Below are positions 400 to 11,434 of a DNA stretch of 16,182 bases, piece by piece. A model generated the notes under the pieces. It worked only from the letters and a program-made list of their open reading frames with translations, searched no databases and was not told where the DNA came from. This DNA comes from a virus (taxonomy: Duplodnaviria > Heunggongvirae > Uroviricota > Caudoviricetes), in IMG/VR virus record IMGVR_UViG_2526164689_000027, positions 1-16,182 of that record. The stretch is one strand, 5' to 3'. The translations under genes and the position numbers were made by a program. Numbering within the stretch: the first letter of the stretch is position 1; the number at the start of each line of letters is the position of its first letter.

Positions 400-782
400 C
401 GAATTTCTCCCGTGTACAGGAACAGAGTTAAAAAGCCGGAACCGGAATCAAATTACAGGATGGCCATCTGCCAGTGGCTGGTCGTAAAAAAAGGCCACGC
501 CATGCGCAGCCGGAAATAAAGGGATAACGATGATAGTTTGAGAAAAACAGAAACGACACTTTTGTGGCAAAGCATGGTGCCGGGTGCCTCCCGGTGAGTT
601 CAGCCCGGTGCCACTAAACCCTCGTCATTCTCGTTTTGATAATCAGAGATTATACCGTCACCAGTCGCCCCTCCGCTCAGGGGGATTCACCATGCAGTTT
701 TTTTCTAACAAATTCTCATCCGGGCAGACAACATTCAACTGACTTAATTGTGAGGTATGTAACATTCCTGTTGAACGGATAC

Positions 783-3964: not shown

Positions 3965-4336
3965 ATGCGAATTTTCAAAAACGCCTGGTTTGAACGTTTC
4001 GCCCGAAAACATCGGATTTCCGATAAATCGCTGCGCAAAATCGTGGAGCAGGCCGATAAGGGGATCATATCCGCAAATTTGGGTAGTGGTGTCATTAAAC
4101 AAAGATTAGCCCGAAGTGGTGGCGGAAAATCAGGCGGTTACCGGACAATAATTTTTTACCGCGTTGCAGAAAAAGCCTTTTTCATCTACGCATACGCAAA
4201 GAATGAACGAGAGAATATCACTGCTATAGAGGAAAATGCTTTTCGAAAAGCCGCTCCCCATGTCCTCAATCTTACTGATGAACAGCTGGCACAATTGATT
4301 CAACAAGGCCAGTTCACGGAGGTACCCAATGAGTAA
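3965..4336 (+). CDS. RelE/ParE-superfamily toxin, HigB-2 / Gp49-like (123 aa)
   Basis: Block GSGVIKQRLARSGGGKSGGYRTIIFYRVAEKAFFIYAYAKNERENITAIEENAFRK parallels the V. cholerae HigB-2 core (GTGGLRKIRV...GKRGGSRIIYYF...YLLTIYGKNE). Its stop overlaps the start of the next gene by 8 nt, with toxin first as in HigBA-type operons. Confidence 0.7.
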   Translation: MRIFKNAWFERFARKHRISDKSLRKIVEQADKGIISANLGSGVIKQRLARSGGGKSGGYRTIIFYRVAEKAFFIYAYAKNERENITAIEENAFRKAAPHVLNLTDEQLAQLIQQGQFTEVPNE

Positions 4337-4646
4337 AAATTACCGCAGTGATGCACTTGCATCTGTACATGAAATGATGGAGTCACTCCATGATATCGGT
4401 GCAATCACAAAACAAACTATGCGCGAATTCGATGAAACTTGTCTTCAGCCTGCGCCGGTAATGTCTCCGGAAAGGATCCGTGCACTGCGAGAACGAGAGC
4501 ATCTGTCTCAACCTGTTTTTGCCAGATACCTCAACGTCAGTAAAAACCTGATATCAGACTGGGAACGAGGAGTGAAACGCCCGGGAGGTGCAGCTCTTCG
4601 GCTTCTTTCAGTTGTCGAGAAAAACGGGATCCAGGTAATATCCTGA
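4329..4646 (+). CDS. HTH (XRE-type) antitoxin, HigA-2-like (105 aa)
   Basis: Translationally coupled to the toxin. C-terminal region RIRALREREHLSQPVFARYLNVSKNLISDWERGVKRPGGAALRLL is a typical XRE helix-turn-helix. Confidence 0.7.
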   Translation: MSKNYRSDALASVHEMMESLHDIGAITKQTMREFDETCLQPAPVMSPERIRALREREHLSQPVFARYLNVSKNLISDWERGVKRPGGAALRLLSVVEKNGIQVIS

Positions 4647-4748
4647 TATTCTAATACAACAAAACCCGCCGAAGCAGGTTAAGTGCGGGTGCGTTGAGGA
4701 TGCCTGACACATCAGAGGTGGCGAGGGATTTCTCCCTCGCCAGGTCTC

Positions 4749-4904
4749 TTACTCCTCAGGTTCGTAAGCTGTGAAGACAGCGACCTCCGTCTGGCCGGTT
4801 CGGATTCGTACCTCGCAGAGGTCTTTCCTCGTTACCAGTGCCGTCACTATGACGGTTAAACAGATGACAATCAGGGCGATTAACATCGCCTTTTGCTGCT
4901 TCAT
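4749..4904 (-). CDS. hokD: Hok/Gef-family type I membrane toxin (HokD/RelF-like, 51 aa)
   Basis: MKQQKAMLIALIVICLTVIVTALVTRKDLCEVRIRTGQTEVAVFTAYEPEE matches the Hok/Gef family across its full length (transmembrane helix then conserved CEVR..GQTEVAVFTAYE). ATG at 4904; the track ORF extends in frame to an upstream ATG at 4961. Confidence 0.85.
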   Translation of the reverse strand: MKQQKAMLIALIVICLTVIVTALVTRKDLCEVRIRTGQTEVAVFTAYEPEE

Positions 4905-5175
4905 AGCCTGCTTCTCCTTGCCTTTCGGCACGTAAGAGGCTAACCTACATGTGCAAAGCATGAAATTGGCCTCAGATTAATGTTAAGCGTCCTGCAAGAC
5001 GCGTAATGTTAACTGGGGCTTTTCTCTGTCTGCCTTACGGCGGCATGCCCGAGGCAGACAGCCTCAAGCACCCGCAGCAATTCTACTTAACTCTTCTTTC
5101 CCCGCAAATCATTTTATCCCCGATGGTAATGTTCTCCCGATATGGGAATTCCCATATCAAGGTTAACTCAATCGG

Positions 5176-5727
5176 TTAAAGCTCCATTAATTTTCCGGCC
5201 AGTTCATCTCGTGGCATTACCAGCCATCCGCGCGATTTAAGCAAAGCCAGGGCTTCTTCAACCGTCACCAGCTGGCCAGGCGCATAACTTCGGATGAAGG
5301 CGGTTTTATCGTCACGGATCGCCAGGTGAAAATCGATATTCATTTTTCCCATAGCCCGCTCTTTCTCGTACTGGTTGAAGTAACTGTCTTCGAGTTTTTC
5401 GAATACTTCCCACGCCTGATCGGTTTCGAGCATTTTTGCATGACGGGCTGCTCCGCGTTCTGTCCAGAGGATGAGAGTGCGGGTTTTGGGAGAAATTTTC
5501 ACCTCATTTTGCGACTCGTTTAAAACTAGTCGCAAATTTTTGAGCTCATCACCAACAGCTTTAAAGAAGTGTTTTCCCTCAATAAATCGAGATTTATTTT
5601 CATGGTGATTCTGCTGTATACGGATTGCTTCTGTTCCGTAAAGGCGGGCGAGTAACTCAGTTGTGATTACAGGAATCTGGTTATAAGTGACAGGGGAAAG
5701 GTTTTTGACAGTAACTTGAGTCGTCAT
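5176..5727 (-). CDS. ORF6N-domain protein (phage antirepressor-like, 183 aa)
   Basis: ATG at 5727 with GAGGG SD. N-terminus ITTELLARLYGTEAIRIQQNHHENKSRFIEGKHFFKAVGDEL fits the ORF6N/KilA-N-like consensus (from recollection). Confidence 0.5.
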   Translation of the reverse strand: MTTQVTVKNLSPVTYNQIPVITTELLARLYGTEAIRIQQNHHENKSRFIEGKHFFKAVGDELKNLRLVLNESQNEVKISPKTRTLILWTERGAARHAKMLETDQAWEVFEKLEDSYFNQYEKERAMGKMNIDFHLAIRDDKTAFIRSYAPGQLVTVEEALALLKSRGWLVMPRDELAGKLMEL

Positions 5728-5891
5728 GATAACGCCCTCTGGTTGATGAATTTAACTATCACCACCTTCAGGTCTCAATCATCAGGTGGCGAGACGTACA
5801 GGGTTGAGACTACCGGATCAACCAACCGGCCAGCCTTTCGGCTGCCCCATACGCCTCACCATAATTCAGATGTGCGTGCGCATACGACAAT

Positions 5892-5913
5892 AAAAAACAC
5901 GCTCGCGGCGTGT
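5892..5913 (-). terminator. Rho-independent terminator in the nin-type region (tR2-like position)
   Basis: On the minus strand: stem ACACGC / GCGTGT with 5-nt loop CGCGA, followed by 6 U (complement of A5892-A5897). Confidence 0.45.
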
Positions 5914-5998
5914 GTCTGTCGCGGTTGAATATCCGGGGTCTCAATCCCGACGGTCAACTCGACCGTGCGGTGAATATAGCCCCGGATTAGTAATTACG

Positions 5999-11376: not shown

Positions 11377-11434
11377 TTCTGGTGACATTTGGCGGTATCA
11401 GTTTTACTCCGTGACTGCTCTGCCGCCCTTTTTT
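11377..11434 (+). ncRNA. dicF: DicF small regulatory RNA (Hfq-dependent sRNA targeting ftsZ and other mRNAs)
   Basis: TTCTGGTGACATTTGGCGGTATCAGTTTTACTCCGTGACTGCTCTGCCGCCCTTTTTT matches my recollection of E. coli DicF almost base for base, including the terminator hairpin GGCGG (11391-11395) / CCGCC (11423-11427) and U-tract. Lies just upstream of dicB as in Qin. The 5' end is approximate (RNase-processed in K-12). Confidence 0.7.

Follow-up and report, generated by a model that had tools for sequence, protein, structure and literature searches.

An intact hokD-type hok/mok/sok locus, with mok in frame with hok, predicted in a lambdoid prophage of Escherichia coli

Described hok/mok/sok systems and the prophage locus

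The hok/mok/sok (parB) system of plasmid R1, the mechanism of which has been described (PMC9841398, PMC1635323), is plasmid-borne and has a proven role in post-segregational killing. In E. coli K-12, hokC (gef)/mokC/sokC adjoins nhaA and has lost its fbi and terminator to IS186, and hokD (relF) of the Qin prophage is found without tac, leader stem, ucb, mok start, Sok and the Sok promoter, with relBE directly upstream. The stretch of DNA analysed here (the window, 16,182 nucleotides) carries at positions 4657-5107 what its sequence indicates, with high probability, to be a complete hokD-type hok/mok/sok type I toxin-antitoxin locus of a lambdoid E. coli prophage, working as in the R1 scheme. 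The locus is an ordinary, conventional prophage copy of a well-known RNA-controlled toxin system, already known and with nothing new in it. The following features were assigned:

4749-4904, minus: hokD toxin gene, 51 aa, 100% identical to K-12 HokD, PF01848
4914-4919, minus: hok Shine-Dalgarno (SD) AAGGAG, 9 nt before the hok ATG, nearly invariant
4763-4766, minus: UACG motif at hok codon 47 (Tyr), TadA A-to-I recoding site (Tyr to Cys)
4749-4961, minus: mok reading frame, 70 codons, in frame with hok, common stop
4969-4973, minus: mok SD region GAGGC, invariant in 90 sequences
5062-5073, minus: mRNA 5' end and tac element GGGUGCUUGAGG, start of the RF01794 match
5026-5061, minus: conserved leader stem-loop CUGUCUGCCU / AGGCAGACAG, variable loop with GGCAUGCC; equals the long stem of the RF01794 consensus
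5013-5019, minus: ucb (anti-SD box, GCCCCAG), closed-form partner of the mok SD region
4934-4938, minus: dcb (GCCUC), partner of the mok SD after processing of the mRNA
4720-4741, minus: 9-bp GC-rich hairpin GGCGAGGGA-GAAA-UCCCUCGCC, predicted 3'-terminal stem of the processed hok mRNA
4687-4699, minus: fbi (fold-back inhibition element) CCUCAACGCACCC, pairs with tac through 12 bp and one bulge
4657-4680, minus: intrinsic terminator of the hok mRNA, the sole terminator-like site in the scan; forms in the fold and is conserved in K-12 hokD
5080-5107, minus: putative hok/mok mRNA promoter, by homology (-10 TAGAAT 5085-5080, weak -35 TTGCGG 5107-5102, 16-nt spacer)
4918-4946, plus: predicted Sok promoter, by homology (-35 TTGCCT 4918-4923, 17-nt spacer, -10 TAACCT 4941-4946)
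4953-5029, plus: predicted Sok antisense RNA, about 77 nt, ends mapped by alignment from annotated K-12 sokC (16952..17010)

The likeness to K-12 hokC is extensive: the mRNAs agree at every base of ucb (AAAAGCCCC) and of their initial 25 nt, in which tac lies. Leader stem, hok SD and the core of Hok are conserved as well (82% identity for Hok), each leader matches RF01794 with about 118 bits, and Sok, as predicted for the window, lies opposite the mok start in both; of the mok SD, just the core GAGGCC is common to the two. In contrast to hokC, the window locus is intact and lies in a prophage. K-12 hokD shares with it an identical HokD protein and a lambdoid prophage context; the DNA is also nearly identical over a stretch that opens 17 nt before the hok ATG and takes in the post-stop hairpin, fbi and the terminator. 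This homology begins at about 4918, right at the hok SD, and relative to K-12 hokD the window is the carrier of the ancestral complete leader. The K-12 relE-hokD arrangement (100% identical upstream) was found in 3 of 125 HokC/D-clade loci.

Identity to R1 is only about 49% over an aligned 460-nt stretch around hok, and 39% for Hok, but tac, the metastable hairpin, the leader stem, ucb, the mok SD, dcb, the hok SD, the 3' protective stem, fbi and the terminator are common to both, with tac/fbi and the stems kept via compensatory changes and the predicted Sok likewise opposite the mok start. The R1 locus differs further in having its role in killing proven, and in being borne by a plasmid instead of a prophage.

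Sequence and comparison indicate a single minus-strand mRNA of about 415 nt (5073 to about 4657) bearing mok (ATG 4961) and hok (ATG 4904), closed in its full-length form by pairing of the 5' tac to the 3' fbi and of ucb to the mok SD. By homology to R1 hok/sok, expression may then be envisaged as follows. The full-length form would be stable, untranslated and unbound by Sok. Slow 3' trimming up to the 4720-4741 hairpin would strip off fbi, after which the leader would refold to tac/ucb and SD/dcb and expose the mok start in a stem-loop. The unstable, constitutive plus-strand Sok (about 4953-5029) would bind this region via its 5' tail, block mok translation and trigger RNase III cleavage. Upon decay of Sok, mok would be translated, the hok start region opened and HokD made, with damage to the inner membrane.

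Folding and covariation of the mRNA

An earlier sequence-only reading of the region recognised a Hok toxin gene and a leader rich in structure, and both are borne out by the identity to K-12 HokD, by the folds and by covariation. The match of the 51-aa ORF to PF01848 has E = 2.7e-23 (81.7 bits versus a cut-off of 22), and the Rfam covariance model of the hok leader, RF01794, matches the minus strand, the hok-sense one, from end to end of the model (1-157) at 4899-5073, with 117.3 bits against a gathering score of 59. The entropies of the hok codon positions 1, 2 and 3 (0.30, 0.19 and 0.57) indicate purifying selection at codon level. As to the recoding site, TACGAA is invariant in 90 sequences, and editing of the hokD mRNA in K-12 has been reported at 6% (PMC12214031).

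The full-length mRNA (5073 to 4657) folds with -181.4 kcal/mol, as compared to -135.1 +/- 6.4 for shuffled sequences (z = -7.3). In 90 homologous mRNAs 88.7% of cells are paired versus 34-42% in slid controls, a contrast which is inflated since the structure behind the pairing counts was itself obtained from the window sequence. Covariation comprises 42 pairs changed on both sides, a level that 0 of 500 shuffles reach.

The fbi, tac and ucb elements, which the sequence-only reading had named as those to look for, were all found, as were dcb and the metastable 5' hairpin, and covary across the 90 homologues. The long-range tac/fbi pairing (5073-5062 with 4699-4687) closes the full-length mRNA in both the MFE and the centroid fold. 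Its helix is 97.3% paired in the 90 sequences, with compensatory changes, and fbi covaries with tac in Photorhabdus, Kluyvera, Citrobacter and Pantoea loci. The mok SD is sequestered by ucb in the full-length fold, where ucb pairs with 4975-4969 (MFE fold; helix 97.6% paired, 2 compensatory pairs), and positions 4700-4712 are engaged with the mok start region. The alternative partners of tac are ucb or, in the metastable 5' hairpin of the nascent RNA (-21.2 kcal/mol, 92% paired), positions 5055-5043. In the open form, ucb and two A residues (5021-5020) pair with tac (99.5% paired) and the mok SD is paired with dcb, which sits in a nearly invariant block (4932-4942); the SD/dcb pairing is kept at 100% in the 90 sequences.

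The nested inverted repeats noticed earlier in the leader, CTGTCTGCC at 5026-5034 and GGCAGACAG at 5053-5061, are present and correspond to the conserved leader stem, which has a fold z of -4.0 and a helix 95.8% paired in the 90 homologues, with 3 pairs changed on both sides. The palindrome GGCATGCC is also present between them, at 5042-5049, but its palindromy is not conserved. Only GGCAU, the first half, is kept, where it forms the 3' arm of the metastable 5' hairpin; pairing by the second half is seen in 20 of 90 sequences. A role for GGCATGCC in protein binding or regulation was rejected on these grounds.

The perfect 9-bp hairpin reported past the hok stop was likewise recovered. Its arms, GGCGAGGGA (4720-4728) and TCCCTCGCC (4733-4741), lie 7 nt past the stop TAA (4751-4749), and the hairpin folds with -20.5 kcal/mol (z = -6.0) and is 97.0% paired in the 90 homologues. 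It is predicted to protect the processed (truncated) hok mRNA from 3' exonucleases; the homologous R1 stem is needed for the stability of truncated hok mRNA (PMC9841398). All sequence features of the earlier reading were thus found where it had placed them, with structures beyond chance as judged from the fold z scores and the pairing in homologues.

The energies of the two forms were compared before and after trimming. For the full-length mRNA the closed form (-181.4 kcal/mol) is about 15 kcal/mol better than the open form (-166.7), while for mRNA trimmed to the 4720-4741 hairpin the values are -143.3 and -142.4, about 1 kcal/mol in favour of the closed form. The tac/ucb open form is absent from the unconstrained MFE fold of the truncated mRNA, which leaves the mok SD occupied by ucb and has tac bound up in the 5' hairpin. 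Because enforcing tac/ucb costs only 0.9 kcal/mol in these models, the open form of the truncated mRNA may be regarded as accessible, but not as predicted.

The in-frame mok

Upstream of hok the frame is open for a further 19 codons to an ATG at 4961-4959, giving the 70-aa ORF, and GAGG at 4973-4970 precedes this ATG by 8 nt. The extension with its own GAGG is thus present as had been described; mutations in the GAGG of R1 abolish toxicity (PMC9841398). The accompanying claim that an in-frame upstream start is unusual was wrong. Among 125 related HokC/D-clade loci, collected by a single-protein query, the distance from an upstream mok ATG with its SD to hok is 57 nt, and mok hence in frame, in 97, 56 nt in 13 and 58 nt in 8, so that the start position (56-58 nt) is kept in 118 of the 125. 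Counted by distinct leaders, mok is in frame in 44 of 60. K-12 mokC (b0018, 16751..16960) and hokC (16751..16903) have a common stop and are exactly 19 in-frame codons apart, as in the window, and the K-12 mokA pseudogene has its stop in common with hokA. Only R1 mok and K-12 mokB, among the named mok compared, are out of frame, starting 58 nt upstream; R1 mok reads the +1 frame and ends 4 nt before the hok stop. The statement that plasmid mok is out of frame therefore holds for R1, but not for an IncFII plasmid variant of the R1 locus, in which mok is in frame.

The sequence-only reading had also held that the extension would be coincidental if alignment showed a conventional out-of-frame mok with an annotated sok. 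The in-frame ORF aligns base for base with annotated mokC/sokC, which agrees with the spirit of that check in that mok is conventional, though in frame. By this alignment, the ORF from ATG 4961 is the conventional mok of the hokC/hokD clade.

With mok in frame, initiation at 4961 in this locus must give rise to a HokD extended at its N-terminus to 70 aa. It might then be asked whether this Mok-HokD fusion is a distinct, selected long toxin isoform with altered targeting or toxicity, the gene being a dual-start gene rather than a leader-coupled one. In favour of this are the majority status of the in-frame arrangement, the fact that any mok translation must yield the long product, the naming of the 70-aa ORF as Hok family toxin by gene callers and NCBI (the exact sequence is on at least 1000 public contigs under this name), and the conserved stretch ...LASY.PKGKEKQA with which the extension closes. 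We consider it very improbable, as in near-identical HokD loci mok begins at 56 nt and terminates at a TGA overlapping the hok ATG, or begins at 58 nt and reads the +1 frame, and the fusion is therefore dispensable. The mok-only codons have entropies of 0.52, 0.52 and 0.48, with neither 3-nt periodicity nor a third-position excess of variation, and therefore the position of mok is conserved and its frame is not. Further, the conserved blocks of the extension fall on dcb, the hok SD and the hexamers of the Sok promoter, so that constraints at nucleotide level explain their conservation, and the sequence of the R1 Mok peptide is reported to be irrelevant, with only translation up to the hok SD being of importance (PMC9841398). 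The frame state is an incidental outcome of indels of one base, in a stretch under constraint from RNA structure and the Sok promoter rather than from an encoded peptide. The extension was also considered as a coding domain and rejected, codon periodicity being absent and the frame variable.

Sok, promoters and the state of the locus

The antisense Sok had been expected on the plus strand between about 4930 and 5060 but had not been placed with confidence. The predicted gene falls inside this interval and can be placed by homology, as 4953-5029 aligns end to end with annotated sokC, with an 18-nt insertion in the hairpin relative to SokC (59 nt). In the predicted layout the RNA opens with a 5' tail, GCAAAGCAU, complementary to the region around the mok start codon, and closes with a long terminator hairpin followed by a U-rich tail; it folds with -30.2 kcal/mol (z = -4.8). 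The predicted +1 (C4953 on the hok strand) is invariant and lies 49 nt upstream of the hok ATG, as compared to 44-49 nt for the annotated 5' ends of K-12 Sok RNAs. In K-12, mokC/sokC dsRNA has been recovered by capture from living cells, and the stability of toxin transcripts depends on RNase III (PMC7373196). Hypervariable patches were observed in the Sok 5' tail and its target, at 4954-4958 and 4962-4967.

The predicted Sok promoter is the positional homologue of the sequence upstream of annotated sokC, though its -10 is TAACCT as against a CACTCT-like sequence in K-12 sokC; in 90 sequences there is no or almost no variation at TTGCC of the -35, nor at the T, the A and the last T of the -10. 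An RpoD genomic SELEX study (PMC3946193) names sokC merely as a flanking gene and offers no promoter evidence of use here. The hok/mok -10, TAGAAT, aligns with TATAAT upstream of K-12 hokC and with the R1 hok -10 TATGAT, which has been validated by mutations (PMC9841398). A sigma-70 consensus scan of 4600-5250 gave no site on either strand, both predicted promoters being below threshold, in line with the earlier difficulty in locating Sok. We do not read this as absence of promoters, because the experimentally strong R1 Sok promoter region (TTGCGC-17-TATCCT, R1-type sequence) would fail the same scan.

These low promoter scores could also be taken to mean that the locus, like the hok loci of K-12, is a relic without activity, its sequence elements persisting but with no expression of toxin or Sok and no function for the prophage. 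As far as the available portion of the literature goes, the chromosomal homologues tested (hokA, hokB and hokC) did not mediate post-segregational killing, and decay is seen in relatives: tac is disrupted in one locus (L091), ATA replaces the mok ATG in another (L116), Hok is frameshifted in a third (L133), and the K-12-type relE-hokD truncation also occurs. Still, we find a relic unlikely, given that all known regulatory elements are intact and covary, that hok is under purifying selection at codon level, and that no IS element or rearrangement interrupts the window locus, unlike K-12 hokA, hokC, hokD and hokE. The 531-bp locus is, moreover, present in 100% identical copies in many EHEC genomes, has at least 99% identity at the best place in 147 records, and is found in 4722 of 5426 complete E. 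coli genomes. A complete locus of the hokD type remains the preferred reading.

Many EHEC prophages carry the identical locus, which in RefSeq is annotated with the 51-aa hokD only, without mok and without Sok; one identical copy lies in E. coli O26:H11 11368 (NC_013361.1, 2206099-2206629). Although named "sok", RF01794 in Rfam models the hok-sense leader, and automated pipelines can therefore put "sok" on the wrong strand and with the wrong ends.

It is tempting to speculate, though the probability is low, that the mok-hok coupling in the hokC/hokD clade may be interchangeable, single-base indels in the stretch with the Sok promoter switching near-identical loci between a 57-nt in-frame fusion, a 58-nt +1 overlapping ORF and a 56-nt, 19-codon leader ending at the AUGA that overlaps the hok start. 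In the in-frame majority the 70-aa HokD could be a real or even the main toxic product. As a separate point, the patches at 4954-4958 and 4962-4967 could insulate the many prophage copies in the same genome from each other's Sok.

The discovery value of the locus is small, since this is a type I locus of textbook kind, the EHEC prophage is a common one and the seemingly odd trait is the norm of the clade. Its practical worth lies in the annotation of hok loci, for which, as the comparison of loci indicates, the frame of mok is unusable as a criterion.

The hokD-type locus and its prophage setting

When all ORFs on both strands were read, a 70-aa ORF was found on the minus strand from 4961 to 4749, whose final 51 codons, starting with the ATG at 4904, have the product MKQQKAMLIALIVICLTVIVTALVTRKDLCEVRIRTGQTEVAVFTAYEPEE. 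This HokD matches PF01848 and is 100% identical to K-12 HokD. The ATG at 4961 lies in frame with the hok ATG, 57 nt (19 codons) upstream, and is preceded by GAGG at 4973-4970, as the sequence-only reading had described. The exact 70-aa sequence is already public in at least 1000 contigs under the name 'Hok family toxin'. A UACG TadA editing motif is located at 4766-4763 (minus strand) in hok codon 47 (Tyr), inside a small predicted loop. TadA is reported to recode hokC, hokD and hokE at this motif by A-to-I editing (Tyr to Cys; PMC12214031), and the surrounding TACGAA is invariant in all 90 homologues, including R1.

The locus is an already known system, and it carries every defining feature of the hok/sok family that can be tested in sequence. 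Its closest relatives are two K-12 loci and the one of plasmid R1. The K-12 hokC/mokC/sokC locus has an in-frame mok as in the window, but its 3' end is lost to IS186, while hokD of the K-12 prophage Qin has no leader, its toxin and 3' UTR being identical to those of the window. The alignment of K-12 hokD with the window begins only 17 nt before the hok ATG and runs through the terminator, and what precedes it in K-12 is relE; the window therefore holds the complete form of a locus that is 5'-truncated in K-12. In hok/sok (parB) of plasmid R1 the elements are shared and mok is out of frame.

The segment 4650-5180 (531 bp) has 100% matches in many complete E. coli genomes, mostly EHEC (O157:H7, O26:H11 and others), and a homologue in 4722 of 5426 E. 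coli genomes, with 2 such places per genome at the median and 10 at most. In NC_013361.1 it lies inside a lambdoid prophage with dicC, a ydaT-family gene, an antitermination-protein gene and tRNA genes; the annotation of the locus there consists of a 51-aa 'hokD' CDS, mok and Sok being unannotated. Prophages are enriched in hok genes (preprint 10.1101/2025.08.07.668861). The neighbours in the window are:

536-724, minus strand: STnc100 sRNA (134 bits)
3965-4646, plus strand: RelE-family (PF06296) toxin gene and HTH antitoxin gene, with 8-nt overlap
5176-5727, minus strand: ORF6N-domain (antirepressor-like) gene, with C4/isrK directly upstream
within 5782-5979, minus strand: C4 antisense RNA and isrK (69 bits; 51 bits)
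11377-11428, plus strand: DicF RNA (77 bits)

The C4/isrK/ORF6N set looks like a P1/P7-type immI-like module, on the same strand as hok and immediately upstream of it; a c4-a1b1 target match beside C4/isrK was below threshold. DicF and STnc100 fit a lambdoid prophage backbone resembling Qin/Rac. In K-12 the place directly upstream of hokD is taken by another type II pair, relBE, whereas in the window the RelE/HTH pair converges on hok, with about 10 nt separating the antitoxin stop at 4646 from the end of the terminator of hok.

The mok frame among relatives

The sequence-only reading had considered an in-frame upstream start unusual. This is refuted by K-12 mokC/hokC and by 97 of 125 clade loci, all with the in-frame 57-nt spacing. 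Judged from sequence, the extension is mok and the in-frame arrangement is the norm of the hokC/hokD clade, so that the feature flagged as unusual is its commonest state. K-12 mokC (16751..16960) and hokC (16751..16903) have a common stop and differ by 57 nt, an architecture equal to that of the window, and the mokA pseudogene shares its stop with hokA. In contrast, K-12 mokB starts 58 nt upstream and out of frame, as does mok in the R1-type sequence, which is present at ≥99% identity in more than 2600 plasmids; the R1 coordinates (mok ATG 116-118, hok ATG 174-176) agree with this spacing (PMC9841398). An IncFII variant of the R1-type plasmid locus has mok 57 nt upstream, in frame.

The loci sampled were 80 IMG/VR loci with identical HokD and 53 loci from one genome per species (Escherichia, Shigella, Kluyvera, Citrobacter, Pseudocitrobacter, Photorhabdus, Pantoea, Erwinia), of which 125 with a valid hok anchor were counted.

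Position of the SD-preceded mok ATG upstream of hok (125 loci; 60 distinct leaders; L numbers are collected loci)
57 nt, in frame: 97 loci; 44 leaders
56 nt, 19-codon mok whose stop TGA overlaps the hok ATGA: 13 loci (L010 class of 11 IMG/VR loci, L100, L102; near-identical HokD/HokC); 3 leaders
58 nt, +1 frame: 8 loci (L091, L096, L097, L109, L111, L114, L115, L117; near-identical HokD/HokC); 8 leaders
absent: 7 loci, 3 of them with the K-12 relE-hokD arrangement; 5 leaders

The frame-changing indels of 1-2 nt fall inside the mok-only codons, whose complementary strand also carries the Sok promoter and 5' end; for instance, GG-CAAGG vs GGTCAAGG is the complement of the Sok -35 (TTGCC vs TTGACC) in the alignment of 90 homologous mRNAs. 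Column entropy by codon position in these 90 sequences is 0.52/0.52/0.48 for the 18 mok-only codons and 0.30/0.19/0.57 for hok, and this contrast indicates coding selection on hok and none on the extension. Inside the extension, the blocks of conserved nucleotides coincide with dcb (GCCUC, 4938-4934), the partner of the mok SD in processed mRNA, with the hok SD and with those positions that are critical in the Sok promoter. What is conserved is where mok starts, not the frame in which it reads. This fits the conclusion from R1 that mok translation as far as the hok SD matters, while the Mok peptide does not (PMC9841398). In the in-frame state, ribosomes starting at 4961 would necessarily yield a 70-aa N-extended HokD.

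Alternative pairings of the mRNA

The 417-nt mRNA has a predicted fold of -181.4 kcal/mol, compared with -135.1 ± 6.4 in shuffles (z = -7.3). Rfam RF01794 matches at full length (4899-5073, minus strand; 117 bits, gathering score 59). The repeats named in the sequence-only reading are all where it had placed them:

5026-5034: CTGTCTGCC, leader repeat
5053-5061: GGCAGACAG, leader repeat
5042-5049: GGCATGCC, leader, described as a palindrome
4720-4728: GGCGAGGGA, 3' hairpin arm
4733-4741: TCCCTCGCC, 3' hairpin arm

In the MFE and centroid folds the nested repeat is a 10-bp leader stem (z = -4.0) and a 9-bp hairpin forms after the stop codon (z = -6.0); the structured leader and 3' hairpin are classical hok mRNA elements. 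GGCATGCC does not persist as a palindrome among the homologues: GGCAU alone is kept, which is the 3' arm of the metastable hairpin. Both folds of the full-length RNA also pair tac (5073-5062, the first 12 nt) with the fold-back inhibition element fbi (4699-4687), the anti-SD box ucb (5019-5013) with the mok SD region, and the mok start region (4961-4949) with 4700-4712.

In the 90 distinct homologous mRNAs, aligned from tac to fbi, 88.7% of cells are paired in the structure derived from the window, vs 34-42% when partners are slid by 1-3 columns. Both sides have changed in 42 pairs, vs 27.4 ± 2.7 in shuffles, none of 500 reaching the observed value. Pairing is 97.3% for tac/fbi, 95.8% for the leader stem, 97.6% for ucb/SD and 97.0% for the post-stop hairpin, and tac/fbi shows compensation in Photorhabdus (GGGCGCUUGAGA / UCUCAAGCGCCC), Kluyvera (...GAGA / UCUC...) and Citrobacter (...GAAG / CUUC...). 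The helices of the open form are kept too (tac/ucb 99.5%, SD/dcb 100%), and the nascent 5' hairpin of tac with 5055-5043 (-21.2 kcal/mol) is 92% paired. The fourth nucleotide of the mRNA (U or C) covaries with its partners in both the metastable hairpin and fbi (alignment columns 4, 28 and 430; window 5070, 5046 and 4690) and is bulged in tac/ucb; such three-way covariation is expected for alternative, mutually exclusive pairings.

The closed form (tac/fbi with ucb/mok SD) is predicted to be better than the open form by 14.7 kcal/mol in the full-length RNA, and by 0.9 kcal/mol once the RNA is truncated at the post-stop hairpin. These modelled energies match the R1 model. In R1 the counterpart of the post-stop hairpin is the stem that ends the truncated hok mRNA; when that stem is disrupted, the processed form disappears (PMC9841398).

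Sok and the proposed mechanism

A consensus promoter scan called neither the predicted hok mRNA promoter nor that of Sok, and Sok was therefore placed by homology and structure. Annotated K-12 sokC (16952..17010) lies opposite the first 9 nt of mokC and runs on upstream. Alignment with this locus maps its ends to 4953 and 5029 on the plus strand, where Sok is predicted:

4918-4923, plus strand: predicted Sok -35, TTGCCT, followed by a 17-nt spacer
4941-4946, plus strand: predicted Sok -10, TAACCT, with the start G 7 nt further
about 4953-5029, plus strand: predicted Sok RNA, 77 nt

The RNA would fold (-30.2 kcal/mol, z = -4.8) into a long hairpin with GGGGCUUUUCUCUGU after it, the hairpin having an 18-nt insertion relative to SokC. 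The 90 sequences show little or no variation at TTGCC of the -35, at the T, A and final T of the -10, or at the Sok +1. The predicted Sok start lies 49 nt upstream of the hok ATG, compared with 44-49 nt in K-12 sokB, sokC and sokE. Although its name is 'sok antitoxin', RF01794 represents the sense strand of the hok leader between tac and the hok AUG; its matches (4899-5073, minus strand, in the window; 602-754 in L002, 767-918 in L006 and 690-845 in L008) include K-12 ones on the strand opposite annotated sokB, sokC and sokE and about 2.5 times longer. Pipelines relying on this family would misplace Sok.

The analysis shows the parts of the system, the ways in which they complement one another, how they are conserved and covary, and a switch in folding energy when the 3' end is truncated. 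By analogy with R1, the full-length mRNA would be stable, inert and inaccessible to Sok, and 3' processing back to the 4720-4741 stem would lead to refolding. Sok would then bind the mok start region and RNase III would cut the duplex; without Sok, mok and then hok would be translated. Killing may be due to the 70-aa extended HokD, to the 51-aa form that starts internally at 4904, or to both. The target of the R1 Sok 5' tail is the mok start, and anti-Sok PNAs (TATGTCTAGTC) mimic that stretch of hok mRNA (PMC1635323). In K-12, mokC/sokC dsRNA has been captured in vivo and toxin-transcript stability is RNase III-dependent (PMC7373196).

Two hypervariable patches of up to 1.9 bits, 4954-4958 and 4962-4967, stand out in the 90 loci, which are very similar elsewhere. 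They border the mok ATG and the Sok +1, both of which are invariant, and lie inside the Sok 5' tail and its target. These patches plausibly set Sok specificity among paralogous copies, and could prevent cross-reaction within an E. coli genome, where as many as 10 copies of hok occur.
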